IMG/VR virus record: IMGVR_UViG_3300010397_000003
Coordinates: 13,299-77,298 of that record
Direction: 5' to 3' (one strand)
DNA: 64,000 nucleotides
From: a virus
The notes beneath the pieces were generated by a model, which did no database searches, was not told the origin of the DNA, and saw nothing but the letters and a program-made list of their open reading frames with translations. The position numbers were made by a program, and so were the translations under genes. Shown here piece by piece: positions 2,791 to 26,084 of this stretch (positions are counted from its first letter, which is position 1; the number at the start of each line of letters is the position of its first letter).

Positions 2791-3506
2791 GCCGCTCTCC
2801 GTCCTGTCGCAAACCGCTGGCGGTCAAAATCCTTATTCTCTCGTCGCCGCACTCGGGCCATTTTCCGAGGCGGTTTGGTTCTGCGGCGAAGCTCTCGTTC
2901 TGCTATGTCCGTCGCTCGGGCGAGGTTGCGCTCCCATCGTTCCACTAGCGATTCGGCATAGAGTCTCGGCTGTGCAGTCTCCCAATAGTGAAATGTTTCA
3001 GGCGTCTCGCGGCTGATTTCCCCTGCGAGGATGGCGCGCGCCCGTTCCAGCTTGCGCTCACATTCGGCGATCCGCGGCCCTGAGTATCGACACAGAACGG
3101 TTTTGTTAAATTGCTCTTGTTGTTCGCGCTGATACTGAAGATGTTTCGAGTCGGGCCGTGTAGACACCTTGCGAATAGAAGCTATCGCCTCCCGCAGATC
3201 GCCCTCAGATGCGACCTCGTAAAACCGGATACCTCGCCGCTCGCAGACTGCTCGCTTCTGCTTGTCGGCCTCGATCTGGCGCTCAAAACCCTTGGCGTTT
3301 TTGTGGAAATGCGACGAGAATTGATAATGCTGAGGCCCCTGCACTTCGATTGCCGTACGAATGCTTGGAATGTAGATGTCGAGTTCCAAGCGTTGGCCCT
3401 CTGAATTCCTAAGCCAATCGGGGCGCACGTTTTCTTGAACCGCGTGACAGCCAAAGATTCGATCAACCTCTTTTACAGTTTGGGCCTGAAGGCGTGATGT
3501 ACCCAT
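2787..3506 (-). CDS. PD-(D/E)XK / DUF559-like endonuclease
   Basis: RPDWL.N..G.RLELDIYIP....AIEVQG.QHY and D..KR..C...GI motifs. Confidence 0.7.
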   Translation of the reverse strand: MGTSRLQAQTVKEVDRIFGCHAVQENVRPDWLRNSEGQRLELDIYIPSIRTAIEVQGPQHYQFSSHFHKNAKGFERQIEADKQKRAVCERRGIRFYEVASEGDLREAIASIRKVSTRPDSKHLQYQREQQEQFNKTVLCRYSGPRIAECERKLERARAILAGEISRETPETFHYWETAQPRLYAESLVERWERNLARATDIAERELRRRTKPPRKMARVRRRENKDFDRQRFATGRRAA

Positions 3507-3507
3507 A

Positions 3508-3622
3508 AACAAAAACCCCTTAGCGAGATGCCTGGCGCTTTGGGAAGCAATTCAAATCCGAAGACAAGAATCAGTAACCAGAGCACCCCGCTAAAGGGTC
3601 TTCAGTCACGGTTGCTTCCCAA
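3508..3622 (-). promoter_or_regulatory. Structured leader with two interleaved stems and a U-tract (attenuator or pseudoknot-like)
   Basis: Perfect 11-bp inverted repeat 3540-3550/3612-3622 crosses a 17-bp stem 3515-3531/3583-3599 (three G-U pairs on the - strand), followed by TTTTGTTT-ATG. Confidence 0.6.
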
Positions 3623-3674
3623 TTCAACCGGCCAAATTGTCAACTTCATTTCTTATTCTCCATAGATTTTCAAC

Positions 3675-3857
3675 TTACGTTTTCCGGTTACCATGCCCAA
3701 CGTGATACGGCCTTGCTCGGCATCGAAACTCTGCGCAGATGTAGACATGTAACTTCAAGGGATTCTTTCGATCTGGAATCATTTCTTGCCGGCGCAGTAG
3801 TGACCTGATATGCGCCTCTGCCTTTCCCCTGGATTCGTGTCCTACTTTTCTGCACAT
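3675..3857 (-). CDS. Hypothetical protein
   Basis: C.K..H.S...A..H....Y.C..C...YHVGH pattern; RBS AGGTGAG. Confidence 0.55.
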   Translation of the reverse strand: MCRKVGHESRGKAEAHIRSLLRRQEMIPDRKNPLKLHVYICAEFRCRARPYHVGHGNRKT

Positions 3858-3858
3858 C

Positions 3859-4284
3859 TCACCTGATTCCTTTTTGTGCGACCATAGGGCATTCCACGGC
3901 GTTCGTTACGTTATGGGTGCGTGGCTCGCTTTCCGCTCGCTCAGTCAGCGTTACGTAACCAAGTTTCTCTTCTTCTTTTTCGAGCCAGTCTGCAATATCG
4001 GCGCGCGACCAGCGGTGGCTATCGTTTAAGTGAATGATTACGTCAGTCATGTCCACGGCATCTTCGTCTTGGCATTGACTAACCGGACAAGTTGAAGGCT
4101 CTTTGAGGTAGGGGTATTCTAATTCAGGAACCGCAGCGCTAACGCCTTCCAGACCGCCTGTCATTGCTTCATAGCCCGCGCCTATCGCGCACGTGCTTCC
4201 ATCGCGGTACATCTGGCGAAAGGACTGCGGCCGGAGCTTCGCCCCTTCTCGAATAGCCTCACTGAACGATGCGAATAGTTTCAT
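3859..4284 (-). CDS. Hypothetical cassette cargo protein (CAIGA...LND...IADWL family)
   Basis: Start follows an L end; C-terminus reads through an R end; paralogous motifs in 13005-13337. Confidence 0.7.
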   Translation of the reverse strand: MKLFASFSEAIREGAKLRPQSFRQMYRDGSTCAIGAGYEAMTGGLEGVSAAVPELEYPYLKEPSTCPVSQCQDEDAVDMTDVIIHLNDSHRWSRADIADWLEKEEEKLGYVTLTERAESEPRTHNVTNAVECPMVAQKGIR

Positions 4285-4362
4285 TGCGCTTTACCTCTGG
4301 CCGGTTTACCGGCCCACGAATCGTTGACGTAACGAACGTCTTTAGTTGCCCTATGGCTTCAC
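3876..4362 (-). mobile_element. Putative single-gene cassette bounded by inverted repeats (R1 3876-3942, L1 4285-4362)
   Basis: Ends read inward: TGTGCGACCATAGGGCATTCCACGGCGTTCGTTACGT vs TGTGAAGCCATAGGGCAACTAAAGACGTTCGTTACGT. Confidence 0.7.
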
Positions 4363-4618
4363 ACTTCAAAAGTTCTGAGAACTCAAGAGCGAGTGTCGCC
4401 GCCTACACGACACGCTGGAGTTTCCCCGCAGTCGCCAGCGGCATGTAGCCACCGACTTCGACCGCTCTCTCGATACATTGGCCGCATCATGCCTTGGATC
4501 GACACGACAAACCGCTTAGATAGGCTTATCCACCACCTACCTGTCACCAATGAATCTCTTTCAAATATCCGTTGCGCGACGCGCCCTCAGTTGCCTTCTC
4601 ACGCCCCCCGCGCAAGCC

Positions 4619-4865: not shown

Positions 4866-5729
4866 CTAGAAGGGCACGTCGTCATCCGATTGATCGTCGC
4901 CGACAGATTTATTCAGCCGGAAGTTGTCTAGCTTCTCGCTTAACGCTTGAATCAAATCTTCTGTCTGCTCGAAGGAGAGACCGGCAGCGCCCTTGGTCGT
5001 TTCAAACTTCTCGTTCACGTACTGGTCAAGTCTGGCTGGGCTGAATGGCGGCTCGTAGCCTTCATCGTTTAGCAGCTTGCACGCGCTCCGCACGCCCTTC
5101 ATCAGCGCTTCCTTGCGCTCGGCCATTAGATTGCCCTGCGGCGGCTCAGAGGCCGGAGAATCGCCCAGGATGACGTTGTGACGCTGCGCGTCAATGCAGA
5201 CCGTAGCGAAGCAGGCTTGCTTGGCCTGATCGTCCACAAGGTTCAAAGCAGTAATGAGTTCAATGGCAACATCGGCACAGCCCAGAAGGTGCGTCTTAAA
5301 ACTTTCGGCGTCGTATCTCTGTGGCGCCGAATACTCTACGCGGGTGTCAGGCTTGTGACCGTTCCCGTTCGATTTGGCCGGCGCAGTTGTTCCGTTTCCG
5401 TTCTGCCATTCCCACTTGGCCGAGCCCGTAACAACGATCTGATCGAAGGTCTTATCTCTGTATTGCTCATGCTGAACGCTAAGACCTGTCAGTCCGTGCT
5501 GCTTTGAATGGTTCGCTTTGAGTATGACCGTTTGCCCGGCCTTATCGTTTCCGACAGCATCGACATTCTTTAGTTTTAATCGCCCGCCACCGGCCAGTTG
5601 TAGTGTTTGAAACGACCACGGGCCATGTTCACCTTCGCCCGATTTTCGCTCGTAAACTTTGTCGATCTTTACTGTCACCTCTGGCGGCGTGAACCCGTCT
5701 GGCTGCTGTAAAATTTCTTGTAAATCCAT
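4866..5729 (-). CDS. Putative single-stranded DNA-binding / recombination protein
   Basis: OB-fold-like N-terminus, acidic DDDVPF tail typical of SSBs; next to the exonuclease gene. Confidence 0.55.
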   Translation of the reverse strand: MDLQEILQQPDGFTPPEVTVKIDKVYERKSGEGEHGPWSFQTLQLAGGGRLKLKNVDAVGNDKAGQTVILKANHSKQHGLTGLSVQHEQYRDKTFDQIVVTGSAKWEWQNGNGTTAPAKSNGNGHKPDTRVEYSAPQRYDAESFKTHLLGCADVAIELITALNLVDDQAKQACFATVCIDAQRHNVILGDSPASEPPQGNLMAERKEALMKGVRSACKLLNDEGYEPPFSPARLDQYVNEKFETTKGAAGLSFEQTEDLIQALSEKLDNFRLNKSVGDDQSDDDVPF

Positions 5730-5737
5730 AAGACTCC

Positions 5738-6415
5738 TTATGCGGCTCGCTTCTTGAGCCTTTTGTCGATGTCGTACGCTTCTCGAAAGAGAATAAACTG
5801 ACGCCAGCCATCATCAAGATTCTCGAAATAGTGATGACTAAAATCTGCTTCGTCGCGGCTGAATCGGCATAGATGGAATCCGCCCTCGATTGGCTGATCA
5901 GGGAAGTTTTCTTCCCAAAGAGCTTTGTACGCCGCTACCTGTACCAAGGCATCCCGATAGATAGCCGATGAAGTTTTCCAGTCTGCGAGGCTTCGTACGC
6001 CGTCAATTTCCACAACTGCGATTCCGTCAAACGTGCCGCCGAATTTATACTTCTCAGACACTAGGGCCATTTCCGTTTTGACCACCGAGAGTTTCGTGGT
6101 TCGTTCCCAATTCAAATAGTTTTCATAGGCGCGGTTCGCTCTTTCCAGAATCTCCGGCGAAACCTTTTCCGCTTCAATCATCGCCGTGATTTCCGCGTCA
6201 GACTTTCCGGTGATGTGATACTCGACTAGCGCGTGGGCGATGGTTCCAGCTTGCGCGGCGTCGTCCTTCGTCTCGCGGAAGTCGAACCCGTTGCGACCCT
6301 GATCCCAAGCCCAATAGATGATGCCGCCAGAGTCCTTAAAGCGTCCGATGATGGTCGTGACGCCAGGGACTTTTGTGCCGTCCGCGAGGTGATATCCGCC
6401 TTTAGGCCGCGACAT
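5738..6415 (-). CDS. PD-(D/E)XK phage exonuclease
   Basis: PGVTTII, AA..GT..H..VE, FGGTFD, DWKTS, Q.AAY motifs. Confidence 0.85.
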   Translation of the reverse strand: MSRPKGGYHLADGTKVPGVTTIIGRFKDSGGIIYWAWDQGRNGFDFRETKDDAAQAGTIAHALVEYHITGKSDAEITAMIEAEKVSPEILERANRAYENYLNWERTTKLSVVKTEMALVSEKYKFGGTFDGIAVVEIDGVRSLADWKTSSAIYRDALVQVAAYKALWEENFPDQPIEGGFHLCRFSRDEADFSHHYFENLDDGWRQFILFREAYDIDKRLKKRAA

Positions 6416-6933: not shown

Positions 6934-7245
6934 TTAGAACGCCGTCGCAGCTTTGGGATTTGTGATATGCCCGATCCCGCTTTCCGGCTTGACTTCATCT
7001 GCGAATAGCGGCCTGAACCATGCTTGCGGGCACTCCGCGTCGATGTACTCAAGGCCGTGGCGTTTGACCGTCAACCAGAGAACGCCAAGCATTTGCGGCG
7101 GGTAGCCGTTCGCGTTATCGCTCCACTGCTGCGCCATTGATTCGTTCTCCGGCGCGGCCTTGACTCGCTCGACAACCGCATCAACTTGAGCCGGAAACAT
7201 GCCGCAGTTCGTTAGCCGTTCGCGCATTACCTGTTCAAAGGTCAT
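6934..7245 (-). CDS. Hypothetical cassette cargo protein
   Basis: ATG directly follows L2. Confidence 0.65.
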   Translation of the reverse strand: MTFEQVMRERLTNCGMFPAQVDAVVERVKAAPENESMAQQWSDNANGYPPQMLGVLWLTVKRHGLEYIDAECPQAWFRPLFADEVKPESGIGHITNPKAATAF

Positions 7246-7403
7246 CTGCTTTACTCTCGCGGTTTACCGCTTCGATTCGTTGACGTGTCGGACGCCTTGA
7301 GAACTACCTTGGGCCTCAATCCCTGAATCCTATTTGTCAAAGCCTCGGGCATTCATGGACGCCCGTTTCTATCTGGGTGCGTGGCTCACTTTTTCGCTCG
7401 CTC
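7246..7403 (-). repeat. Back-to-back R-L junction (R2 7337-7403, 17-bp spacer, L2 7246-7319)
   Basis: Two copies of the terminal repeat in inverted orientation separated by CAAATAGGATTCAGGGA. Confidence 0.75.
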
Positions 7404-8157
7404 AAGCCGCTTTCTTTTGCCTTGGAGCGAGGTCTAACCACTTACTTCCCGGCGTTTTGAATTTGATGCAGGCTTGGACGCAGATTTCAGCGGCGATATT
7501 CAGGATTTCATCGCGGGCTTTAGCTCGCGCATAAGCAGCAGCAGCATCAGCAGCATAAGCAGCAGCATCAGCAGCATAAGCAGCAGCATCAGCAGCATCA
7601 GCAGCAGCAGCATCAGCAGCATAAGCAGCAGCATCAGCAGCATAAGCAGCAGCAGCAGCATAAGCAGCATAAGCAGCACGGCACGCCTTACGGGCGTTTT
7701 CGGCGGCCTCTCGCGTGCCCTCGTTCTCGCAGCGGAGCGCGGCTTCGACAATGGCTCCAGCGTGAATTTTATCTTTGAATCTCAGCGCGGTAGCGCGAAG
7801 CGTGACGGGAAGAATCTGGCGAATCACTTGCTCCGCGAGGTGCATCACGAACTCTTTACGGAGTTGGCGATTCTCAGGCAGGTCAAGGAACTCGCTTCCA
7901 AGTTGAGCGATCGCCGCGCGTCTCATCCCTGCGGTTCGGGCCGCATTACTTGACCACGCTGCATCGTTGATTCGGATTTTGTATCGCCGGATGCAATTCG
8001 CTACGCACTCCGGCTGATCGCCGTGCGGTAATTCGAGCGCATAGCAGATGGCCGCTTCAACGCACATCTTTCCCGGCTTCGCGACGCCTAAGCCGGACAC
8101 AAGACCAGCATCCACGACCCCTAAAACCTTCCGCGCATGGTTTTTGGTTAGCTTCAC
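7402..8157 (-). CDS. Hypothetical cassette cargo protein with Ala-rich AAYAADAA tract
   Basis: GTG at 8157 after AAGGAG; CVEAA.....LPH.D.P.CV motif; lies between L8 and R2. Confidence 0.7.
   Translation of the reverse strand: MKLTKNHARKVLGVVDAGLVSGLGVAKPGKMCVEAAICYALELPHGDQPECVANCIRRYKIRINDAAWSSNAARTAGMRRAAIAQLGSEFLDLPENRQLRKEFVMHLAEQVIRQILPVTLRATALRFKDKIHAGAIVEAALRCENEGTREAAENARKACRAAYAAYAAAAAYAADAAAYAADAAAADAADAAAYAADAAAYAADAAAAYARAKARDEILNIAAEICVQACIKFKTPGSKWLDLAPRQKKAA
7528..7677 (-). repeat. Coding trinucleotide-like repeat (GCT/TAT/GAT codons)
   Basis: About 150 bp of agc/ata/atc units on the + strand. Confidence 0.9.
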
Positions 8158-8216
8158 CGTCTTTCTCCTTCGCCGCAAGGCGGCCCCACACTCTTTACTA
8201 AAACGGGCGTCTTGAT

Positions 8217-8821: not shown

Positions 8822-8851
8822 AGAATAACCTTAAAGGTTTTTGAAAGTCAA
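8822..8851 (-). promoter_or_regulatory. Sigma70-type leftward promoter with operator-like palindrome
   Basis: TTGACT-18-TATTCT, ATG 7 nt downstream; AACCTTAAAGGTT palindrome at 8827-8839. Confidence 0.65.
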
Positions 8852-9422: not shown

Positions 9423-9459
9423 AAAAGTCTTGACTTTTGTCTTAAAGGTTCTTTAGAAT
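9423..9459 (+). promoter_or_regulatory. Sigma70-type rightward promoter
   Basis: TTGACT-18-TAGAAT; contains CTTAAAGGTT shared with the 8827-8839 palindrome and an AAAAGTC-TT-GACTTTT palindrome over the -35. Confidence 0.65.
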
Positions 9460-9471
9460 GCTTCAAAGCCC

Positions 9472-9972
9472 ATGAAGCACCTATACATCGGAATGCAAGA
9501 ACAGCGGCGGGTGAGGGACTTTTTGTTTCGCCACCTGCACCTGCTCGGACGCGACGAGCAAAACATTCTTGTTCTGAGGTATGGCGTGATCAAGGTGGGG
9601 CGTGTTGGCTGGGGCGAGGTGGCGGCGCTTTTGGGCATTCAGCCTGTTGAACGTGTCCATCAACACCACGCCGCCGCGCTTAAGAAAATCGTAAGACTTT
9701 CCCGCGAAGATATTCCGCCGTCGCTGCGTTGGGACTCAGAAAACGAATATGCGCAGCAAAAGCGTCGCGCCCGTAGACTGCTCATCGCTGCCATTAATAC
9801 AGGACGAGTAGAGCGAAAACCGTGTGAAAAGTGCGGCAATCCCAAGTCTGAGGGCCACCACCCTGACTATTCCAAAGCCTTAGAAGTTGTCTGGCTATGC
9901 CATGCCGATCACGCGGTCGAACACGCAAGGTTGCGGAATAAGTTAAAGCAGTCACAACTCAAAGCAGCCTAG
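9472..9972 (+). CDS. Sigma70 region-4-like HTH fused to an HNH-like zinc domain
   Basis: L...EQ.ILVLRYG.....EVA.LLGI...RV.Q....AL.K, then CEKCG....EGHHPDYSK.L.V.WLC...H. Confidence 0.6.
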   Translation: MKHLYIGMQEQRRVRDFLFRHLHLLGRDEQNILVLRYGVIKVGRVGWGEVAALLGIQPVERVHQHHAAALKKIVRLSREDIPPSLRWDSENEYAQQKRRARRLLIAAINTGRVERKPCEKCGNPKSEGHHPDYSKALEVVWLCHADHAVEHARLRNKLKQSQLKAA

Positions 9973-10526: not shown

Positions 10527-10696
10527 ACGCCACCCAAACACAACCCGAACCAATCAAGACCTTTATCTGTGGATGTAGAGAAGATGAACCGTGCTTCGAT
10601 CATAAACTGAAAGATTCTGAGTGTGAGACCACAGGGAGTCTTGTGGGGTTCGTTTTAATGAAGATTAGAAGCACGTAAACGTGCGAGGGGGAAGCG

Positions 10697-11407
10697 ATGA
10701 TCGAAATCAAAAACAGGTACACGGGCGCAGTCATTGTCCGCGATGGTGAGGCTGAGACGCTACGAGATGCGGTGATTCGATTCGTCGCAAACGAGCGAGC
10801 AGCGGAGCGCTCTGCCGACTTGAGCTCTGCCGACTTGCGCTCTGCCGACTTGCGCTCTGCCAACTTGCGCTCTGCCAACTTGCGCTCTGCCAACTTGCGC
10901 TCTGCCAACTTGAGCTCTGCCAACTTGCGCTATGCCGACTTGCGCTCTGCCAACTTGCGCTCTGCCAACTTGCGCTATGCCGACTTGCGCTCTGCCAACT
11001 TGCGCTCTGCCAACTTGAGCTCTGCCGACTTGAGCTCTGCCGACTTGAGCTCTGCCGACTTGCGCTCTGCCAACTTGCCATCCCCAACCGCCGTTCTGCT
11101 GGCGACGTGGGGTGATTTATCGCCGCAACTTGTCGCTGATCTAATGGTGTTCGACGCGGCTAACCATCCCAACCCTGAAGCGTTCGACGCTTGGGCCAAA
11201 GGCGGTTCGTGTCCCTATAGCGGCGTTCGCGTTCAGAGGGCCGCAAATTTCACAGAAGACGCAAGGGAGTGGGGCAAAGGCGTATCGTGTCGCCCCTATG
11301 ATTTGATGGTGCGGGTACTGGCTGAGAAGTGTCCCGAATGGTCAGAAGAGAGGATCGCGGAATTCACCAAGAGGTTTGAAGCGAGCGATAGCTCGCCACG
11401 CAACTAA
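10697..11407 (+). CDS. Pentapeptide repeat protein
   Basis: MIEIKNR.TG.VI N-terminus and about 18 A(D/N)L(R/S)(S/Y) repeats. Confidence 0.9.
   Translation: MIEIKNRYTGAVIVRDGEAETLRDAVIRFVANERAAERSADLSSADLRSADLRSANLRSANLRSANLRSANLSSANLRYADLRSANLRSANLRYADLRSANLRSANLSSADLSSADLSSADLRSANLPSPTAVLLATWGDLSPQLVADLMVFDAANHPNPEAFDAWAKGGSCPYSGVRVQRAANFTEDAREWGKGVSCRPYDLMVRVLAEKCPEWSEERIAEFTKRFEASDSSPRN
10811..11077 (+). repeat. 15-bp tandem repeat encoding the pentapeptides
   Basis: T(C/A)TGCC(G/A)ACTTG(C/A)GC, about 18 units. Confidence 0.95.
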
Positions 11408-11472
11408 GCCAAACACGGACGCCTTGAGTCGCCCTATGGCTGCACATAAAGAAAAAGATTTAGGAGCAGAAA

Positions 11473-12307: not shown

Positions 12308-12522
12308 TAGCCGAGATAGCAGTCAGCGAAGTGAATCTAGATGTTGACTGGATTCCCTGTGAGAAGTGTCACCGCACTGGATGGCTTGACTATGAGGTTG
12401 ACTACTTTGGTCGTAAGACAGAACCAGGAAGATGTAATGCGCTAGGGTGCGAGGCGGGAATGGTGGCTCAAAGCCAAGGGCATTCAGCGACGACCGTTAA
12501 TCACAGAATGTTGGGCGCGTGA
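12304..12522 (+). CDS. Hypothetical CxxC protein; C-terminus reads into L7
   Basis: GTGA-coupled; CEKC..G...C....C. Confidence 0.5.
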   Translation: MIAEIAVSEVNLDVDWIPCEKCHRTGWLDYEVDYFGRKTEPGRCNALGCEAGMVAQSQGHSATTVNHRMLGA

Positions 12523-12942
12523 ACGCGCTAGGCAAAGAAAAGGGAAAGCATGAGCCGATACGTGTCTCCTAACAATCTCAAGCCGTCACCATTGTCTTGT
12601 GCGGCGACTTAGAAGCGATTTGGGATTGGCGTTATCAGAAAGCGACGAGAACTATGCGCTCTATGGTTGCGCAGCGGGTCGTAATCAGAAATCGGCGGGA
12701 GCGTGGGCTTGGGAGTTGTATGTGCGACAGCGCGGCGAGTGGCGACCAATGGGGATCGGTTCGTGCGACCCTGCGAGTTCGATGCGCAAGCAAAGCACTC
12801 TAACGAGTTTTACCAATCACGGGGATTGCGAGGTTTGTATCGAACAACCGCGAACAGGGAAGAAGGCAACACGAACCTAGACCGCGTAAGCGGCAACAAC
12901 CGTGACCTGTGGGGTTGAGTTTTGTTGCAGCATTAACAGAAA
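12468..12942 (+). mobile_element. Putative cassette, subfamily 2 (L7 12468-12549, variant R end 12866-12942)
   Basis: TCAAAGCCAAGGGCATTCAGCGACGACCGTTA, hairpin GCGCG-TGAA-CGCGC; R end similar to 20772-20847. Confidence 0.6.
12550..12880 (+). pseudogene. Cassette cargo, probably frameshifted near its 5' end
   Basis: The ATG at 12550 placed by L7 stops after 20 codons; the long frame (12599-12880) is offset by one base. Confidence 0.4.
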
Positions 12943-13004
12943 GATTTTCGTGTTTGTAGACAGAAAGATTTTGTTTGAGGGTTGAAGTAAGAGAGGCGGC
13001 TTAG

Positions 13005-13779: not shown

Positions 13780-13926
13780 TCGTGGAGTGGAAGTAGACAG
13801 ATGTACGAATGCGCAACCATTGGATGCACTAATCGCGTGTCGCACCCCGACCAGTTATGCGTGACGTGTTCTGATGACGATCAGCCTTGGGACGATGACT
13901 ACGATCCTGATGATGAAGGTTGGTAG

Positions 13927-14500
13927 ATGAAGCCCAACGGAGGATCGCGGCGTTCGTTAATTCAATGATCGTGAGCCGCCTTGCGGCAAAAGGAAAAGCA
14001 AAATGAGCGAGAAATGTGAAATCGGCGCGCACTACGTTGTTGGATTCATGTTCAGCGCAGACCTTCGGTTTGTTCTATTAGTGCTAAAGAATCGTCCTGA
14101 CTGGCAGCGCGGAAAGCTTAACGGCGTTGGCGGTAAGGTTGAAGAAAACGAGTCACCGGATCAAGCGATGAGCCGTGAGTTCTTAGAAGAGGCCGCGATT
14201 GACACCGAGGACTGGCTGCGCTTCGCAACGCTTGGTGATGATCGTGGATGGATCATTCATTTCTATTACGCGAAGGGCGACATCAACAAGGCAAAAACCG
14301 TGACCGACGAATCACTGATGATGTTTCCGCTCTGGAAGGTGTCGAGTGATACGACGCTAATTCCCAACCTTACGTGGCTGATTCCAATGGCTCTAAGTAT
14401 GCAGAAAGAGCGCTGCGATTACTTTCAAATTACCGAGCAGCAAATATTTGAGCCACGAACGCAGGATTAACTGACGCCGCCGAATGCCCTTTGGTTGCAG
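13927..14500 (+). mobile_element. Putative cassette (L5 13927-14002, R4 14449-14500)
   Basis: ATGAAGCCCAACGGAGGATCGCGGCGTTCGTTA, hairpin GCCGC-CTT-GCGGC; TGAGCCACGAAC...CTGACGCCGCCGAATGCCCTTTGGTTGCAG. Confidence 0.7.
14003..14470 (+). CDS. NUDIX hydrolase
   Basis: GGKVEENESPDQAMSREFLEEA Nudix box. Confidence 0.9.
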   Translation: MSEKCEIGAHYVVGFMFSADLRFVLLVLKNRPDWQRGKLNGVGGKVEENESPDQAMSREFLEEAAIDTEDWLRFATLGDDRGWIIHFYYAKGDINKAKTVTDESLMMFPLWKVSSDTTLIPNLTWLIPMALSMQKERCDYFQITEQQIFEPRTQD

Positions 14501-14509
14501 AAAAAGAAA

Positions 14510-15846: not shown

Positions 15847-15909
15847 GCGAACGGAAGTGAGCCGGACAAGTGAGATCGACTGACGCCCGTGAATGCCCTT
15901 GGGTTTCAA
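15847..15909 (+). repeat. Cassette R end (R5), followed by a partial L end at 15940-15968
   Basis: GCGAACGGAAGTGAGCC...CTGACGCCCGTGAATGCCCTTGGGTTTCAA. Confidence 0.7.
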
Positions 15910-16068
15910 AACAGAAAATGATTTGCGCAGATTTGAATGTTGAAGCCACGGAAGACTTAGGGGATGAAATGAAAAACTTAGACTTTGCGATTTTCTTTGT
16001 TGGTTCGATTTGGGCGATCGCTTGGGCTATTGTCCGCGTCGTTCAGACTCGAAGCAAGATGTAGGGGA

Positions 16069-16570
16069 TCGAAACCAAAGGGAGTCTAACGACGCCCGTA
16101 TCTTGAAAGTTTGTGGGCCGCTCTGCGGCGAGGGGAGAAGATGGCGCTAGATTGCAAAACTGTTTATTACGACGGCGGCAGCATGGTCGTTGGCTGTGGT
16201 TCGCAGCCTTGCAAATGCGGACATCTAGCCGCGTTGTTTGAAGAGGATCATGAGGCGATCTTCGCCGAACTGGAAGCGGAACTAGCGAAGCCGTTACCCG
16301 CTGATTACGTGCCAAGTGGCCAAGAGTGGTGGGACTGAATGGCGACCAAAACACCCAAACATCTCAAGCTATCGAAAACAATGCTGGCGCAGATTGCCGC
16401 CTATGCTCAGGACTGCGAAGAGGCCGGATGGTACTACGGAAATAGGGCCGAGTTCTGGAAACGCCACAAGGCGATTAAGGCGTGGCTCAAGCAGGAAATC
16501 TCCGCGCGAGCGAAAAGCTCGCCACGAATCCACGCTAAAACGGACGCCGTGATCGGCCCTATGGCTTCGA
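16069..16570 (+). mobile_element. Putative two-gene cassette (L6 16069-16140, R6 16506-16570)
   Basis: GATCGAAACCAAAGGGAGTCTAACGACGCCCGT vs GATCGAAGCCATAGGGCCGATCACGGCGTCCGT; hairpin GCCGC-TCT-GCGGC. Confidence 0.7.
16141..16338 (+). CDS. Hypothetical cassette cargo protein
   Basis: ATG directly after the L6 RBS. Confidence 0.55.
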   Translation: MALDCKTVYYDGGSMVVGCGSQPCKCGHLAALFEEDHEAIFAELEAELAKPLPADYVPSGQEWWD

Positions 16571-16581
16571 TCAAAGAATGA
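16339..16581 (+). CDS. Hypothetical cassette cargo protein; reads through R6
   Basis: Abuts the previous stop; tail encoded by the R end. Confidence 0.55.
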   Translation: MATKTPKHLKLSKTMLAQIAAYAQDCEEAGWYYGNRAEFWKRHKAIKAWLKQEISARAKSSPRIHAKTDAVIGPMASIKE

Positions 16582-16844: not shown

Positions 16845-17192
16845 ATGCCTGACAAATCCACCACAGATAAAGACCGCAAACGAGCCGAGACGCAAATACG
16901 TGTAGCAGCCGCAGAAATGTACGACTTGTTGCCGCTTGGTGTCTACGAACGTGTAATCAAGCGCATGGCTGAGGCCGCCACTACCTTTGCATCTGAAGTA
17001 CGAGCAGAACAAAAGATTCCGTCGTGCGCAATCTGCGGCGGCGGTCGCGTGTCGATTCGTGGTCGATTCCCACGCGATCCACAACGCGAGGTCTGCCCGA
17101 CCTGCGTCACTGAGAGGCTTGAGCAGATTCACGAAATCGCAAGCATGGAATATGGTGCTGCCGCTGCGATTCGTAACGAGGTAGAACCATGA
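16845..17192 (+). CDS. Hypothetical zinc-finger protein
   Basis: CAIC...CPTC. Confidence 0.55.
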   Translation: MPDKSTTDKDRKRAETQIRVAAAEMYDLLPLGVYERVIKRMAEAATTFASEVRAEQKIPSCAICGGGRVSIRGRFPRDPQREVCPTCVTERLEQIHEIASMEYGAAAAIRNEVEP

Positions 17193-19736: not shown

Positions 19737-20111
19737 ATGAGCGAGGACTTTGACAAACTAAAAGCGCGTAAAGACATGCTAGTTCAACGCGAACGAGAAA
19801 CCGTCCGCTCCGTCTCTCCTGATGCTGACACGTTAGCCTATTGTGGCTGTGGTGATGGGTTTACGACTACAAATCCAGGTACGTGTGTTAACTGTCTCGC
19901 ATCGCTTACCGCTCCTGATGCTGGAGAGGTAGCGCGGAGAGCGGCAGAGAAGATTTGGGAGAAGTTTCGAGTTTACGATCCCGGTGCAGCAATTAACGAG
20001 ATGCAGATCGACATCTTTGCGGGCATCATTCAATCCGAACTCGCCAACGTCGGTACTCCCGATGCAGATGAGCCGCAGGATTCAGGAACCGCAACCAAAG
20101 GTCATTCGTAG
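19737..20111 (+). CDS. Hypothetical protein; C-terminus reads into L4
   Basis: RBS AGGAG; ATGA coupling. Confidence 0.5.
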   Translation: MSEDFDKLKARKDMLVQRERETVRSVSPDADTLAYCGCGDGFTTTNPGTCVNCLASLTAPDAGEVARRAAEKIWEKFRVYDPGAAINEMQIDIFAGIIQSELANVGTPDADEPQDSGTATKGHS

Positions 20112-20847
20112 ACGACCGTTCAATTACCACGACCGCTCACTAGCGTTCGCAAAGAAAAGAGGGGAGTAGCAATGGAAAGCGCAATCAGGCAGGCCGGGTT
20201 GGTGGAGTTTCCGCCGTTCATGGGTGAAAGAATTTACATGCGAGAGTTTACGAAGCGCGACGGATTGCCGTCCGATCTCTTGCGCTGGCAGTTTACGATT
20301 GATGCGATGCTTGCCGAGATCGAAACGGATGGGCCAATCTATCTGATGGTTGATCAGGGATTCGTTAACGCTGGGAATGTACATCGAAGAGGAGGCCCGC
20401 ATGTGGACGGTGCTTGGCATCCCGGCATCTCCGCGCACGGTAATCCTCGCCCGCATCACAACCCCATGCCTGAACCTCGACCCTACCCAAGACACAGCCT
20501 AAAACTCGGCGGACACGGGCATCGCTTTGACGGCTCGTCGGAGTTGATAGTTTTCGCGTCTGACGTGCTGGGGTGTCAAGCTTACGTCGGAAGCTACGAC
20601 GGCACGCCAGCAGAAGACGGAGATTGTTCGCGCCTCGACCTTAGCCGCATGACCGTTATCAACATGGAGCCGGGGCGTGTGTGGACGGGAGACGCCTTCA
20701 CGACGATCCACGAATCCGTCCCAGTACAGCACGATTGCCTGCGGACAATGGTGCGCCTAAATGCGCCGAACGCAACACGAACCTAGACCGTGCAAGCGTC
20801 GCTAACTCAGACCGTGGAATTGAGTTTTGCGACCACGTATTAACAGA
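20089..20847 (+). mobile_element. Putative cassette, subfamily 2 (L4 20089-20171, variant R end 20772-20847)
   Basis: CCGCAACCAAAGGTCATTCGTAGACGACCGTT, hairpin CGCT-CACT-AGCG; R end similar to 12866-12942. Confidence 0.6.
20172..20786 (+). CDS. Putative 2OG-Fe(II) dioxygenase-fold protein
   Basis: HRRGGPHVDG (HxD), distal IHES, R..VRL. Confidence 0.6.
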   Translation: MESAIRQAGLVEFPPFMGERIYMREFTKRDGLPSDLLRWQFTIDAMLAEIETDGPIYLMVDQGFVNAGNVHRRGGPHVDGAWHPGISAHGNPRPHHNPMPEPRPYPRHSLKLGGHGHRFDGSSELIVFASDVLGCQAYVGSYDGTPAEDGDCSRLDLSRMTVINMEPGRVWTGDAFTTIHESVPVQHDCLRTMVRLNAPNATRT

Positions 20848-20883
20848 CCAATTCCCCGTTAATGCAGATGATAAGGAGAAACG

Positions 20884-21153
20884 ATGAAAATAGAAATGAC
20901 CTTTGACGGCGTTCGTGTTGACGGAACTTTGGACGGCAAAACCTTTGCTGTTGTGCGACGCGGCGCAGAAACAAGCCTCGAAGGAATCACGGGTGATGAC
21001 ACGTTCGGCGGGATGGTCGGTTCTGCGATTCTTGACTTCGCCGGACATGTGCTTGACGGAGCCGTGATTATCATGGAAGCAACTGACGATTTGAAAGTCT
21101 GGGACAAATTGGACGACGATCTTGCGAACGAAGTTTACGACGCGATGATCTGA
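20884..21153 (+). CDS. Hypothetical acidic protein
   Basis: RBS AAGGAG. Confidence 0.55.
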   Translation: MKIEMTFDGVRVDGTLDGKTFAVVRRGAETSLEGITGDDTFGGMVGSAILDFAGHVLDGAVIIMEATDDLKVWDKLDDDLANEVYDAMI

Positions 21154-21162
21154 GGAGCAACC

Positions 21163-21471
21163 ATGACTATGACTAAACCTAATGCAGATGATGAAGCGCG
21201 GGAGATTGTTGGTGCTTTTACTTTGGAGTTAGGCCCAACACGCCGACCGCCAAAAGCAACCGAGGAAATGTTAATGCAAGTTATTGCCGCCGCTCTCACT
21301 CGCTCCCGTCAGCGAGTAGTTGAAGTCGTAAAGGCGAAGCGGGATGAATGGCAACGGCAAGCCGATATCTATGAAGCAGCCGAACATGATTCAGTGTTCG
21401 CGTTTATTAAGTTTGTCGCCGCAGCAAATGAAATTCTCGCTGAGCTAGAGAGGGGGATGGGTAATGGCTGA
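21163..21471 (+). CDS. Hypothetical protein
   Basis: RBS GAGGAG. Confidence 0.55.
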   Translation: MTMTKPNADDEAREIVGAFTLELGPTRRPPKATEEMLMQVIAAALTRSRQRVVEVVKAKRDEWQRQADIYEAAEHDSVFAFIKFVAAANEILAELERGMGNG

Positions 21472-22078
21472 AGAAGACGGAGAGTGGGGCGATATGTATG
21501 CCGACGATGGGCCACGGGATAATCAACCACAAGAACTGCTACCGTGTCCGTTTTGCGGAGAGCGGCCAGTATTGGACGACGCTGGTGACGTGCTGTGCAA
21601 AAAGACTAAATGTCTGGTTCATCCTTTTGTAATTCAAAGCGTGCGAGACGGGAAGCCGCTCAACGATCCAGTGATGGCTTGGAACGCCCGCGCTGCCTGT
21701 CCTGATGAAGTAGAAGCGCCCGACGATGAGATAGTTAAGATTCGTCATGCTTATGGCGGAACAAAGCCAGCATGGTTCAGCGAGCCTCACGCATTTGCTC
21801 AGGTCGCAACCGACATGGATCGTGTCACGTCTACGGTTGCGGCGTTGCGAGAGAGGATCGTCGCACTACAAGAAGAACGCGAGAAAGAAATGTTGGAGGA
21901 CGACGCCTCTAATCAGCCCACCGCCGCCGAAGTTGCAGCGTTACGTGCTGAGAATGAGCGGCAAGATTCGGATCATCTGATGACGGTTGAGCAATATGAA
22001 GATGAAATTACGTCGCTACGTGCTGAGAACGAAGAACTGAAACAGCGGGGCTGCGGTGAGGGAATGAGGAATGGTTAA
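21464..22078 (+). CDS. Lar-like zinc domain plus coiled-coil protein
   Basis: LLPCPFCGE...AWNAR; repeated LRAENE. Confidence 0.6.
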   Translation: MAEEDGEWGDMYADDGPRDNQPQELLPCPFCGERPVLDDAGDVLCKKTKCLVHPFVIQSVRDGKPLNDPVMAWNARAACPDEVEAPDDEIVKIRHAYGGTKPAWFSEPHAFAQVATDMDRVTSTVAALRERIVALQEEREKEMLEDDASNQPTAAEVAALRAENERQDSDHLMTVEQYEDEITSLRAENEELKQRGCGEGMRNG

Positions 22079-22283
22079 GCTAACAGACCTGTCATTGGTT
22101 CAAATCAAGCCCTTCGTTGACACGGACGGTAATCCGCGCCGTGTTTTAGAATTGGTTTTTGAGTGCGGGCAGAGAGTTAAAGTCTCACCCGAATCGTTAA
22201 TTGCCTTCGCGGAACGCGCGATTCGGCAAGCCGAAGCTGCTAAAGATAACGAGCCGTCCCGTGAACACGCCGCCGAGCGATAG
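22071..22283 (+). CDS. Hypothetical protein
   Basis: Overlap-coupled; stop lies within R7. Confidence 0.5.
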   Translation: MVKLTDLSLVQIKPFVDTDGNPRRVLELVFECGQRVKVSPESLIAFAERAIRQAEAAKDNEPSREHAAER

Positions 22284-22335
22284 CGAGTGGTCGCCTTGAG
22301 GCTTACCGAGTTACTGTGAATGCCCTGGGCTTTGA
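22273..22335 (+). repeat. Cassette R end (R7, degenerate)
   Basis: CCGAGCGATAGCGAG...GTGAATGCCCTGGGCTTTGA. Confidence 0.55.
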
Positions 22336-22367
22336 AACCGATAATTCTTTTTCTGAAACCGATCTAT

Positions 22368-22839
22368 TCAAGCAAGAGGATCGCGTAGCCCTCGATCCCT
22401 CAACGGCTTGGTTGATAAGAGATCCGCTTCGGTGTTTTGTTCGCGCGGAATCCACTGGTAAACGACGTTCGGTAATTGGTTCGCCAAGGCCCGCGCCTCA
22501 TCGTATTTCGGCAAGTAAATCGGGTCGCGCTTGCGCTTCACTTTCATCCGGCCCGAAATCTGGCTGATGATCATATCCGCATCACCAAAGACTTTCGCCT
22601 CGGTAATGCCATGCTCGATCAGGTATCGGAGAACCAGGCAGAGCCCGCCGTACTCGGCCAGATTGTTTGACGTGCGGCCGTCTCCTAAATACTCCGACAG
22701 TTCCGCGATCGTCGCACCGTTGCGTTTGATTACCGCTCCACAGGCAGGAAGGACCGCCAGGGTTCGGCCACGTCGCGCCATCAAACCAACATTCGACTTC
22801 ATATTGCTTGTTTGGATCGATCTGTTCTTGAAATAACAT
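22368..22839 (-). pseudogene. Ribonuclease HI-like gene with a frameshift
   Basis: FDGA..PNPG in one frame; SNN.AEY, GD..MII.Q and WIPREQN..AD.L in another; joined by removing one AGGA of AGGAAGGA at 22746-22753. Confidence 0.8.
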
Positions 22840-22965
22840 TCTGATCTCCTTCAGGTAAAAACAGACTGAGGGATTCCCTTCGGCATGCATGCTGTCTTAT
22901 GCTCTGGGTATTGCCTTACTCGTTAGCGAAGAGAATTAACCATTAATTTCAGCGCAATTATATAC

Positions 22966-22994
22966 TTGACATACCCAGACTGGTTTGGTAGCAT
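22966..22994 (+). promoter_or_regulatory. Transposase promoter with -35 inside the left TIR
   Basis: TTGACA-17-TAGCAT. Confidence 0.6.
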
Positions 22995-23022
22995 GGTTTC
23001 GTTAAGGAAAGGCGCGAAACCG

Positions 23023-24048
23023 ATGAACCTAGCAGACCTAATGGAGCGATTCGCAACGGTAGAAGCTGCGAGAGAATATCTTGAGAAAGAGCGTTGGCCA
23101 GAAGGCCCGGAATGCCCGCACTGTGGGCTTGTGGGTGAAGCCTACAAGATAACTCCAAAGCCGCGCCACATACCGGACGAATACCAGACGAAGCGCGAAG
23201 TAGCTGCGCAAGCCAAACGAGTACGCAAACCGCGTCAAGGTCTCTGGAAGTGTAAAGACTGCCGTAAGCCGTTCACTGTTACCGTTGGCACTATCTTTGA
23301 AGATTCACATATCCCGCTTAACAAGTGGGTGATCGCTGTTCATCTCATGTGCGCCAGCAAAAAAGGAATGAGTGCGCATCAGATTCACCGGATGCTCGGA
23401 GTGACTTACAAAACGGCGTGGTTTATGTGTCACCGCATCCGCTACGGAATGTCTCAAGAACCTCTGGCCTCGCAGCTTACGGGCGTTGTAGAGGCCGATG
23501 AAACCTACGTTGGCGGTCGTCTGCGACATAAACAATCTACTCAGGTCAAACAAGGCGTGCGTGCACAGGATCGCGTTTCACCGTTTGACAATAAAGCCGC
23601 CGTCTTTTCAATCCTGCAACGTGACGGCCGCGTGCGCTCTACGCATATGGATCGCGTCACTGGCGAGAACCTGAAAGCCGCAATCAAGCAAGTCTGCGCG
23701 CCGGACGCGCATATCATCACGGACAATTATCCGGGCTACAAACGTCTCAAGAGTGAATTCAAACACTCTAGCGTCAATCACTCTGCCGGAGAATACGCAC
23801 GCTGGGAAGATGGCGTCTGCATCACGACGAATTCAATCGAGGGTTTCTTTTCAATTCTCAAGCGCGGCATTAATGGAACGTATCATCACGTTTCCAAACA
23901 ACATCTTCACCGCTATCTCTCAGAGTTTGATTTCAGATACAACGCCCGCAAGATGACTGATAGTGATCGCCGTGAAGCCGCGCTCAAGGGTTTCTCAGGC
24001 AAGCGGCTCATGCTTCACGATCCTATTGGCAAGACTGGCGAAAACTAA
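23023..24048 (+). CDS. IS1595-family (ISXO2-like) transposase
   Basis: CPHC/CKDC zinc ribbon, FTVTVGTIFE, EADETYVGG, ITD, TNSIEGFFS.LKR, HL.RYL.EFDFRYN. Confidence 0.95.
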   Translation: MNLADLMERFATVEAAREYLEKERWPEGPECPHCGLVGEAYKITPKPRHIPDEYQTKREVAAQAKRVRKPRQGLWKCKDCRKPFTVTVGTIFEDSHIPLNKWVIAVHLMCASKKGMSAHQIHRMLGVTYKTAWFMCHRIRYGMSQEPLASQLTGVVEADETYVGGRLRHKQSTQVKQGVRAQDRVSPFDNKAAVFSILQRDGRVRSTHMDRVTGENLKAAIKQVCAPDAHIITDNYPGYKRLKSEFKHSSVNHSAGEYARWEDGVCITTNSIEGFFSILKRGINGTYHHVSKQHLHRYLSEFDFRYNARKMTDSDRREAALKGFSGKRLMLHDPIGKTGEN

Positions 24049-24068
24049 ACCAATCGACTAGGCTATAG

Positions 24069-24155
24069 TGGTGGGGACGACGGGATTTGAACCCGCATGG
24101 TCGTGAGACCGAAAGTTTCCTAGGCTTGCGCGTTTACCAATTTCGCCACGTCCCC
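24069..24155 (-). tRNA. tRNA-Leu-like type II tRNA with aberrant anticodon arm (positional anticodon AGG); possibly a pseudo-tRNA
   Basis: GGGGACG/CGTCCCC acceptor stem, A discriminator, CCA, D-loop AAATTGGTAAA, V-stem GGTC/GACC, T-arm GCGGG-TTCAAAT-CCCGT; anticodon stem only 3 of 5 pairs. Confidence 0.75.
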
Positions 24156-24814
24156 ACTATCTCAAAAGAACTGCTACCGGCCCGGTCTTGAGTCTTTGCG
24201 GGAATTAGACCGGGCCTTAGTGTTTGTTACGGCCCTTCGCGTTTGAGCAGCAAAGCAATTTGAACGCGAGAGGCTATGTATCTAACTTCATAACACCACC
24301 TCGCACCTCGCACCTCGCATTATGTTTAGGCGAGTCTGCCAATTCCGTCAAAATGGAAAGAAAAGTTTTTTAATCTTCCAGTGGAAACTATTGGAGAATA
24401 AATTACAGTGGAAAGAATTAGGTGGATACTTTACAGGGGGGGGGGCGTAACTTATTCGATCTTTTCCTTCCATCCCGGTTTTCCGATTCGATCCCACGTG
24501 AAATCATAACCAAAGGTTTTCATAAGCCTTACTGCGCGATTTATCTGTTGTCTAAATTGTTCTCTACACTTCTCTGTGTGACGTTTTTTCTGACCTAGAC
24601 CGCACGGGCAGAAAACGTCCGTAGCTTGCCTGAGAGTGACGGCGGGATACGCATATTTTCCGTCAAGCGCAGCAAGTGCTAAATGTCGTTTTGAAGGTGG
24701 TTGCCCGCCCTGAAGCGTTCAGGAAATCGCAACTTGTCCCCTATCTGGCCGGACAGGGTTAAGGCGCGGCGAAAGTTGTTAGCGAGAGTTTACATCAATG
24801 GTAGAATGCGGGAA

Positions 24815-24973
24815 ATGAAAGCAGAACGAAACACGAATCCTGCCGGACGTGAGGGAAGACCTATTAGCCTTCATCCGCTGAAACCACGCGATGCGATCCG
24901 TGGTCTTCTAGCTGTGAAGCCACCACCGAAAGACACTCACAAAGCAGAGAAGAAAACTAAGCGCAAAAAGTAG
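24815..24973 (+). CDS. Small basic IS passenger protein
   Basis: ISLHPL....AI.GLL.VKPP; leaderless-type TGnTAGAAT 7 nt upstream. Confidence 0.5.
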   Translation: MKAERNTNPAGREGRPISLHPLKPRDAIRGLLAVKPPPKDTHKAEKKTKRKK

Positions 24974-25243
24974 AACCTATGACAGGTACAATACTTAGAG
25001 GCGACGCCCTAGTGATCGAAAATATTGACTAAAGAGTTGGTCGGGCGATTTTACAGCGCCACAAGCAACTCTCTTCGAGCCGGGGGAGTATTGCGATTTA
25101 CAGTTGGTAGATGGTCGCGGGGGAGGCTTTTTCATTTCCAACATCCGCTTCCGAAGCGGCAGACCTATTTCGGTTGAATTTGTCGGTTCTGGTGACTTGA
25201 AGTAAGTGGATTCGGGTGGCGTATAGGTGATATAAGCCGCCTT

Positions 25244-25537
25244 ATGGCGAATTACTTTATTTCTTTCGACCTGTCACCCACCGTCAACGAGAAAGAGCGA
25301 CCGCCAATGGCAAAGGTCATCGCGGAAACGTTCCCGCTCAGAAGCTTCCAGTTCCTCAGCAATGGCTGGTTTATTCAAACGGATTGGCCTGCCGAAGATA
25401 TTCGGCTATGGCTCTTAGGTGAGATCAGTCCTAGCTGGCGTGGCGTTGTTATTCGCATAACCGATCCGATGTTTGGGCAACCCCGCGATCCGGCTGACCT
25501 GCCCGAGTGGCTCTTGATCGAAAACAAGGATTCCTGA
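25244..25537 (+). CDS. Small ferredoxin-like-fold passenger protein
   Basis: YFISFDL.....W.IQT....E.I...L pattern. Confidence 0.5.
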   Translation: MANYFISFDLSPTVNEKERPPMAKVIAETFPLRSFQFLSNGWFIQTDWPAEDIRLWLLGEISPSWRGVVIRITDPMFGQPRDPADLPEWLLIENKDS

Positions 25538-25766
25538 TCCGCCTTGAGGCTTGGTGAGCCTTTCGTATTCCTCAAAACCCACACGCGCCATATAAGCGTT
25601 AACCACTCGCGTGTCATCTAATAGACGACAAGGCTCACCGTTGAAAGAAACCACCGTCCCTTTCGGGATAATAGCTATCTTATCGACATCGTTTCCATCC
25701 ACTTGCCACCTTTACTTTCATTCAGGATTTATCGACCTGTCACGCCCTCTGATTGTAGTGGGTATG

Positions 25767-26084
25767 TCATGTATATAATCCCGCCGCTGACTGTTGAGCT
25801 TGCCGTCTGCGAGCTTGAGCGCCGCCTAAGCGTAGACAGGAAACCCGCCAAGAAATAAGCGTTGCGTGAAGTGGGCTTTCCCGCGGAGCGTCTAACGTAC
25901 CGCCTGCCCAGCCAATCCAATACATTACCACTACCACAAGAATCGTGATCAGCGCTGGAATAATGACGTACCTGAGAGACTCGGCTATTCCTTTCCGTCT
26001 CAGTAATCTATTCAAACACCAGAGAAGAGTTCCGCCAATCACCAGAAATAGAAGAGCCGAAAGGGCGAGTGCTGGAAATGACAT
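25767..26084 (-). CDS. Two-TM membrane protein; 3' end formed by the IS TIR
   Basis: Two hydrophobic helices; last codons and stop lie inside 25759-25783. Confidence 0.45.
   Translation of the reverse strand: MSFPALALSALLFLVIGGTLLWCLNRLLRRKGIAESLRYVIIPALITILVVVVMYWIGWAGGTLDAPRESPLHATLISWRVSCLRLGGAQARRRQAQQSAAGLYT

Follow-up and report, generated by a model that had tools for sequence, protein, structure and literature searches.

What is the sequence at positions 7246–7403, in which two repeat ends stand back to back around a short spacer on the minus strand of a phage genome? It had been proposed to resemble an att site or the junction of an excised circle, with a conserved core in the spacer as the point of crossover. 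The window analyzed here is a 64,000-nt stretch of DNA, bases 13299–77298 of a 77,298-bp virus record, and positions refer to this window unless genome coordinates are given. The record encodes a tyrosine integrase, two Dam-type methylases, a replication initiator, an exonuclease, NinG-like and Lar-like proteins, HNH nucleases and tail proteins. Because integrase, methylases, replication and tail proteins occur together, the virus is a temperate tailed phage. It is present in two soil metagenome runs (DNA), and among the runs listed no RNA run contains it. A megablast search with 24 kb against 50,697 records of cultured phages gave no match.

The early genes run leftward from ~8815 and rightward from ~9465. 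Canonical promoters at 8851–8822 and 9430–9459 drive these two long early operons, and an operator-like palindrome is common to both. The rightward promoter (TTGACT-18-TAGAAT) lies directly before ORF 9472–9972 and carries the operator-like repeat CTTAAAGGTT, which is also found at 8822–8851. This ORF (plus strand) opens the rightward operon and fuses a helix-turn-helix resembling that of sigma-70 region 4 to an HNH nuclease motif.

The junction at 7246–7403

The original prediction of a back-to-back R-L junction with a 17-bp spacer was exact in both its minus-strand strings and its coordinates. On the minus strand the R arm ends in TTTGA at 7337, the 17-nt spacer CAAATAGGATTCAGGGA occupies 7336–7320, and the L arm starts with TTGAGGCC at 7319. 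The R arm (7337–7403, named R2 in the original prediction) begins with an inner box, GAGCGAGCG-AAAAA-GTGAGCC, followed by CACGCAC, ACGGGCGTC, GAATGCCC and the outer end GGCTTTGA. Within the spacer (7320–7336) is a single core shared by the two arms, GGATTCAGGG (7330–7321), an architecture that is kept in three junctions. In the L arm (7246–7319, named L2), which is the most divergent copy, the outer TTGAGGCC is followed by the motif, a hairpin (GCGG-TAAA-CCGC, 7270–7259) and a ribosome site, and the ATG of the next gene lies at 7245. An nhmmer model built without either junction copy still finds both in the 64-kb window, the R arm at 7392–7328 on the minus strand (E 6.6e-10) and the L arm at 7270–7327 on the plus strand (E 8e-5). 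Since both halves are detected by this leave-out profile, the site consists of two family members placed back to back in inverted orientation.

The two arms had additionally been described as an imperfect palindrome of about 80 bp. This is correct at the level of the family but not for these two halves, between which any complementary seed is shorter than 6 nt. Folding of the junction is no better than that of shuffled sequences (z −0.02 as RNA and −0.89 as DNA), and the R2 × L2 duplex, at −31.3 kcal/mol, is weaker than all others in its column when L and R arms are tabulated against each other. Because the halves are poorly complementary and fold no better than shuffles, the site is a pair of adjoining ends and not a hairpin. 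The absence of a hairpin agrees better with two ends bound by protein than with a nucleic acid fold.

The R arm closes a cassette whose own L arm (L8177; 8158–8232, minus strand) was found by nhmmer (E 8e-9) and by alignment. On the minus strand this L arm has the outer end TGAAGCC, the motif, a GC hairpin (~8171–8184) and a ribosome site before a GTG start codon at 8157. The single gene of the cassette in the ORF list (7402–8157, minus strand) encodes a low-complexity protein of Ala/Tyr/Asp repeats, specified by a GCA-rich array of 9-, 12- and 15-nt units at 7508–7705, and gave no match in Pfam and PHROG searches. Its stop codon, TGA (7404–7402), falls within the inner box of R2. On the other side, the first gene behind L2 in the ORF list (6934–7245, minus strand) is followed downstream by the exonuclease (5738–6415; PHROG 298, E 6e-28) and a possible OB-fold ssDNA-binding protein (4866–5729). 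The site at 7246–7403 is the boundary of two neighbouring cassettes and comprises a right arm, one shared core and a left arm. Its layout is the one that the joint of an excised circular cassette would have, but it is not a special intact att site, only the place where neighbour cassettes abut.

Arms and cores in the early region

Repeat finding and an nhmmer profile run over the whole genome identified 18 strong copies and one weak copy of the arm, each 50–70 nt long. All 19 are located in the early region, at genome 7.4–35.7 kb; the other 49 kb is free of them. Going outward from its inner end, an arm is made up of a GC hairpin or a GAGCGAGCG...GAGCC box, CCACGAA, about nine variable bases, ACGRNCGYC, three or four bases, GAATGCCCT and TGGYTNCA. 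The GAATGCCCT block is well preserved in R arms and looser in L arms. Judged by their sequence, the conserved blocks CCACGAA, ACGRNCGYC, GAATGCCCT and TGGYTNCA look like protein-recognition sites. The copies are only 55–75% alike with hardly any long exact stretch, and so are not recent copies of one another. They are not self-complementary, RNAalifold predicts no consensus pairs, and a gathering-threshold Rfam scan of the window found tRNA only, with no family matching the arms. A promoter and terminator scan likewise gave no enrichment and no site at the arms.

The arms fall into two classes. Read along transcription, the L arms present the outer motif first and then the hairpin, a Shine-Dalgarno sequence and the start codon, an order found in 15 of 15 L arms from two phages. 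The R arms have the inverted orientation and are placed after the last gene of a cassette. Pairs of L and R arms are properly nested and enclose either one gene (NUDIX, pentapeptide-repeat, low-complexity or of no assigned function) or a few genes, and all cassettes are co-oriented with their operon. Several arms have no recognizable partner.

On the minus strand, a small cassette at 3868–4370 consists of an L arm (4303–4370), one gene (~3940–4284) and an R arm (3868–3933), with the core GGAATCAGG beyond it; both arms are matched by nhmmer at E ~1e-12, and their inverted repeat, I1, is 72% identical over 50 nt. The divergent L arm L0 (126–194, minus strand) is a weak nhmmer match. The Dam methylase gene uses the terminal TGA of this arm as its stop codon, and the core, GAATTTAGAGA, falls within the last Dam codons. 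On the plus strand, the cassette at 10615–11453 carries the pentapeptide-repeat gene (10697–11407) between an L arm (10615–10683) and an R arm (11385–11453) and is flanked by the cores AAAGATTCTGAG and AAAGATTTAGGAG. The gene contains 18 tandem 15-nt units (10747–11136), and this array and that at 7508–7705 both interrupt the assemblies of the source run. An L arm at 12463–12528 (plus strand) was recognized by nhmmer. The NUDIX cassette at 13926–14508 (plus strand, nhmmer) has its gene at 14003–14470 between an L arm (13926–13976) and an R arm (14443–14508).

Further along the plus strand, the segment 15854–16578 comprises an R arm (15854–15917), a 31-codon hydrophobic ORF and a small cassette (L arm 16065–16124, R arm 16513–16578). 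The 31-codon ORF (15968–16063, plus strand) lies between the R arm and the next L arm, with its stop codon inside the core that precedes this L arm. The last cassette, at 20081–22344 (plus strand), begins with an L arm (20081–20142) preceded by the core GGATTCAGGA and holds five genes, including that of the Lar-like protein, before its R arm (22277–22344). Directly after this R arm is an ORF on the minus strand (22368–22802) with an RVT_3 (RNase H-like) domain (E 2e-13). Away from the arms, 156 nt at 17003–17160 are missing from one low-depth contig of the second soil run, a population variant.

Sequences like the spacer of the junction had been reported after R1, R3 and R6 and before L0, L3 and L4, and all of them are present. 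The suggestion that a core is enriched next to the arms also held, as GAWTC occurs within 14 nt outside 10 of the 26 arms, where random early-region windows would give 1.0 and shuffled flanks 0.4, and not one of 5000 trials reached 10. The wider motif is GGAWTCAGG-like and asymmetric. Its position is fixed at 2–3 nt outside L arms, while outside R arms it lies at 6–20 nt, beyond an A-rich stretch. By contrast, only 6–9% of ordinary 40-nt gene upstream regions contain the core, so it is not a general feature of ribosome sites.

Orientation of the core was compared at lone arms only, junction arms being excluded since one core there serves both. Relative to the arm, the core is reversed at five and forward at none of the lone L arms (n = 12), and it is forward at six and reversed at none of the lone R arms (n = 8; Fisher p ~0.002). 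The core therefore flanks a cassette as a direct repeat and does not extend the inverted repeat, as would be expected for an att core or a target duplication. Back-to-back junctions occur three times, at 7246–7403, at genome 12434–12566 and once in phage G001. All three align as an R arm, an A-rich stretch, GGAWTCAGRG, 2–3 nt and a TGARGCC-L arm, with one core each. The two cores that flank one cassette are similar, not identical, and reading of the flanks revealed neither an identical duplication directly abutting the arm termini nor short inverted sites hugging the core. Taken together, core and L terminus resemble a tandem pair of GATTSA units spaced by about one helical turn, which would suit a bound protein as well as a crossover site.

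Arms in other phages and candidate enzymes

Phage G001, a complete genome of 62,106 bp, has seven arms but has in common with the phage studied here only the Dam gene, a 30%-identical integrase and a few small ORFs. A third phage, G006, has one arm. Other phages that have the exonuclease, Dam or NUDIX gene in common with ours carry no arms. Directly outside the R arm at 3868–3933, a 350-nt stretch (3507–3857) is 79% identical in nucleotides to G001 positions 55344–55693; in G001 it is preceded by a 320-nt non-coding, hairpin-rich region 3′ of an SSB gene. A degenerate R arm considered in G001 upstream of this common segment is not a family member by BLAST or HMM.

Sequence comparisons place breakpoints at the edges of arms. 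The NUDIX gene is 83% identical in the armless phage G010, and nucleotide homology is confined to window 13983–14447, from the hairpin before the ribosome site to the start of the R motif. Because this homology is limited to the interval between the arm motifs, the outer motifs form a module separate from the gene and its leader. The closest homologues of the NUDIX protein, P0003 and P0004, are encoded on contigs of 73 kb and 57 kb, one of which is probably G010. Homology of the Dam gene to the armless phage G005 stops inside the core, 2–3 nt before L0, and the Dam gene of G005 ends in GAATTCAAATGA, itself core-like. Additionally, one low-depth contig from the second soil run tracks the window across the L arm at 12463–12528 and departs at 12542, 14 nt inside the arm at the ribosome site, beyond which it carries a different ribosome site and start codon.

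Searches with an exact arm pattern returned, from viral contigs, G001 and chance matches only. Against 185,579 species genomes the pattern, which covers about one-third of R arms, gave 12 chance matches, none of which fits the arm model; the host is possibly unrepresented in this set. In metagenome contigs, an unrelated abundant palindromic repeat dominates among the matches listed. This repeat of ~75 nt (...GCCATAGCCCGTC-GAAAG-ACGGGCGTC-TTTC-GACGCCCTATGGC...) is very abundant in contigs from soil and peat metagenomes (loci L048–L127), with at most four copies per contig and no Rfam match, and resembles the arms only within the search pattern.

A search for excised circles had been suggested as a check, and no such joint was seen at any arm in the assembled contigs of the two soil runs containing the phage, contigs being a form of data that drops rare forms. 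Neither did these contigs contain a deletion, an inversion or an empty site at the arms, and searches for empty sites with backbone or cassette proteins as queries returned distant relatives or nothing. Thus, of the proposal that the core is the crossover point, the core itself stands, being real, position-fixed, present once per junction and directly repeated, but the circular and empty-site forms that should accompany it were not found in these contigs and searches.

No dedicated recombinase tied to the arms was found. The two arm-bearing phages, the studied one and G001, have only one enzyme candidate in common, a tyrosine integrase of generic type with 30% identity between the two. That of our phage scores 35.9 bits against the TIGR02249 model (cut-off 265) and has generic Xer-like proteins as its best matches. 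In G001 (L018), the 3′ half of a tRNA (T arm and acceptor stem, ~1283–1320) adjoins the integrase gene, away from the junction, and is probably the real attP. Proteins of 315, 287 and 327 amino acids, with no assigned function, were considered as hidden recombinases and gave nothing in PDB sequence searches or in a protein atlas.

Two further mobile-element genes were considered. An IS1595-family transposase ORF (22966–24048) lies within 26-nt inverted repeats (22952–22977 and 25759–25784, 88% identical), which are unrelated to the arms. The same pair of repeats, spanning 22952–25784, also encloses a tRNA and several small ORFs. Promoter-like hexamers occur in the repeats, which may therefore function as operators instead of IS ends. 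The enclosed tRNA (24069–24155, minus strand, 87 nt) is assigned by ARAGORN to Pro with anticodon AGG, and its length suggests a long variable arm, unusual for tRNA-Pro. Outside the window, at genome 5402–6454 (locus L022), is a TnpB/Cas12f-like ORF with OrfB_IS605 and TNB domains. TnpB elements do not have arm-like ends, and G001 has neither the IS1595 transposase nor TnpB. A sigma-factor reading was also discarded: L-oriented arms resemble an ECF-type promoter (TGMAAC-N17-CGTC) and ORF 9472–9972 is a weak match to sigma-70 region 4, but the product of this ORF is an HTH-HNH endonuclease and R arms have the wrong orientation for promoters.

Proposed cassette recombination, its alternatives and known systems

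The layout of arms and cores suggests a phage cassette-recombination system of a kind so far undescribed, although it is not proof of one. We tentatively favor, at not quite an even chance, the view that the cassettes are mobile or recombine and that the core is their crossover or target. This reading draws on the inverted arms with directly repeated cores, the single core per junction, the arms in unrelated phages, the gene found with and without arms, and the breakpoints at arm edges. The anatomy and statistics given above are observed here, as are arms common to unrelated phages and one gene that occurs both with and without them. From these we infer mobility, the position of the crossover and the existence of an enzyme. 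Accessory early genes of the temperate phage would be organized as cassettes, each between a left arm and an inverted right arm, and a sequence-specific recombinase or transposase would bind the arms and cut in or beside the core. Integration of a cassette at a core-like target would then yield core-L...R-core, and tandem integration would yield R-core-L. Counting against recombination are the failure to see circle joints, deletions or inversions at arms in the contigs, the missing link to a recombinase, the partnerless arms, the 55–75% likeness of the copies, the non-identical cores, the 6–20 nt spread of spacing on the R side and the alignment of all cassettes with transcription.

A serious if unlikely competitor is that the arms and core are cis-regulatory punctuation, that is, signals read along transcription as protein-binding sites or mRNA elements, which set the expression, stability or insulation of accessory genes and were spread by ordinary recombination without being mobile themselves. 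The arms do lie inside two long operons with canonical promoters (8851–8822 and 9430–9459), and every L arm supplies a start codon together with its ribosome site and a hairpin. Block-wise conservation in 26 diverged copies suggests continuing selection on each, and the start-codon repeats of Cluster K mycobacteriophages provide a precedent (PMC3203893). The direct orientation of the core does not separate the two readings, as core orientation tracks transcription and a transcript-oriented RNA or protein-binding signal would give the same result. However, R arms are inverted and follow genes, a place where a 5′ leader signal makes no sense. In G010, moreover, hairpin and ribosome site accompany the gene in the absence of the arm motif, so the outer motif is a separate module. 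The same arms in phages that have almost no genes in common, the lack of promoter or terminator enrichment at arms and the absence of an Rfam family also count against regulation.

We regard it as improbable that the arms are linkers for homologous recombination, similar to PeSLs, in which dispersed homologies would be used by the exonuclease and annealing system of the phage to shuffle modules between co-infecting phages with no site-specific enzyme. The exonuclease (PHROG 298, E 6e-28) encoded beside a possible OB-fold ssDNA-binding protein, and the breakpoints observed at the inner edges of arms, are what such linkers would call for, and PeSLs mediate shuffling of this kind and yield mini-circles (PMC2839356). 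Recombination between the inverted arms of a cassette, however, inverts rather than excises it, copies 55–75% alike with hardly any long exact stretch are a poor substrate for homologous exchange, and an asymmetric core at fixed spacing is left unexplained. Least probable, and in our view very doubtful, are long-range RNA stems, in which the L and R arms of a cassette would pair within the polycistronic mRNA and an RNase III-like cut would free a monocistronic message, which the inner hairpins flanking the genes would protect: partners are somewhat better complements (ranks 1, 1, 3, 6, 3, 1 and 1 among 8 R arms), but some non-partners pair best (e.g. −64 and −63 kcal/mol), the adjacent R2 and L2 do not pair, the direct rather than inverted cores would end the stem at the arm ends, and a duplex needs no sequence common to all cassettes and to unrelated phages, which would cause mispairing.

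The cassette-recombination reading can be set against systems already described. Integron gene cassettes and attC sites are reported in phage genomes too (PMC9892861). Similar to an integron array, the phage has promoterless, co-oriented accessory genes with their own ribosome sites, and the site between neighbours is imperfectly symmetric, with variable sequence and short conserved boxes. Integron cassettes, however, have one attC each, at the 3′ end, whereas the phage cassettes have two arms each, and L or R ends also stand alone. The crossover is presumed to lie in the middle of R-core-L here, as against the R′ box in attC, and the phage site has neither an IntI-type integrase nor hairpin-forming potential. 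Reading of the arm alignment located no attC boxes (RYYYAAC/GTTRRRY) at a fixed place.

MICs and MITEs (IS231/MIC231) are non-autonomous elements with terminal inverted repeats. The phage cassettes are like them in having inverted terminal repeats around passenger genes with no transposase inside, and in the nesting and abutting of elements. They differ in that no parent IS carrying these ends was found, in the divergence of the phage copies, and in their direct repeats, which are similar cores slightly offset from the ends instead of exact duplications abutting them. In the circle junctions and tandem dimers of IS3, IS30 and IS21, right and left ends are abutted, and the order of right end, short spacer and left end is that of our junction. 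Those elements, in contrast, have a spacer of a few bp, near-identical inverted repeats and an internal transposase gene. In the att sites of tyrosine recombinases, the same core is present in both partners and at both junctions, between inverted core-type sites; here a direct core lies on both sides of a cassette and one core in each junction, with cores that are similar rather than identical and no short inverted sites around them.

Two kinds of phage repeat also invite comparison. PeSLs of T4-type phages are short intergenic modules around non-essential ORFs in plastic regions, for which module exchange and mini-circles have been proposed (PMC2839356). The arms resemble them as short conserved modules bracketing accessory ORFs, but PeSLs are direct repeats with a strong sigma-70 promoter and a terminator stem-loop, while the arms are inverted and have neither signal. 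SAS/ESAS of Cluster K mycobacteriophages are start-codon repeats of unknown function at unrelated gene families, some with inverted 17-bp halves (PMC3203893). These too are phage-specific repeats adjoining start codons; unlike the arms, SAS are 13-bp motifs over the ribosome site in one orientation, with no 3′ partners and no flanking core. REP, BIME and REPIN sequences are short palindromes abundant in the host chromosome together with a RAYT gene, whereas the arms are not self-complementary and their exact pattern has only chance matches in species genomes. In its working the arm system comes closest to integron arrays and to non-autonomous inverted-repeat cassettes, yet it lacks defining features of both, and it belongs to none of integrons, MIC/MITE, PeSL, REP or SAS/ESAS.

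The gain and exchange of small accessory genes by phages is mostly attributed to recombination, whether illegitimate or homologous. Bacteria have dedicated machinery for cassettes in the form of integrons, but such machinery is to our knowledge hardly known in phages. A more specific and more speculative version of the cassette reading, which we consider possible but doubtful, is a phage-borne platform that is integron-like but differently built: units with inverted arms of ~65 nt would excise as R-core-L circles and insert at GGAWTCAGG-like cores, the cassettes would be common to unrelated soil phages, and the catalyst would not yet have been recognized. This catalyst would be the phage Int acting on secondary sites, a small phage protein with no assigned function, or a host enzyme. 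The accessory genes on such cassettes would possibly be counter-defence genes. With a recognizable signature of arm and core, viromes could be screened for mobile accessory genes, candidate anti-defence genes among them, and the signature would offer a testable recombination site and possibly a new recombinase-site pair. If the arms are regulatory instead, they still constitute an unusually elaborate, phage-specific punctuation common to unrelated phages.

Lastly, a second and rarer repeat family is present at 12855–12960 and 20761–20866, in each case 3′ of the first gene behind an L arm, and consists of AACACGAACCTAGACCG, a hairpin and TTGAGTTTTG. A partial copy lies in G001 at ~3251–3279. 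This second family may serve as an alternative right end.
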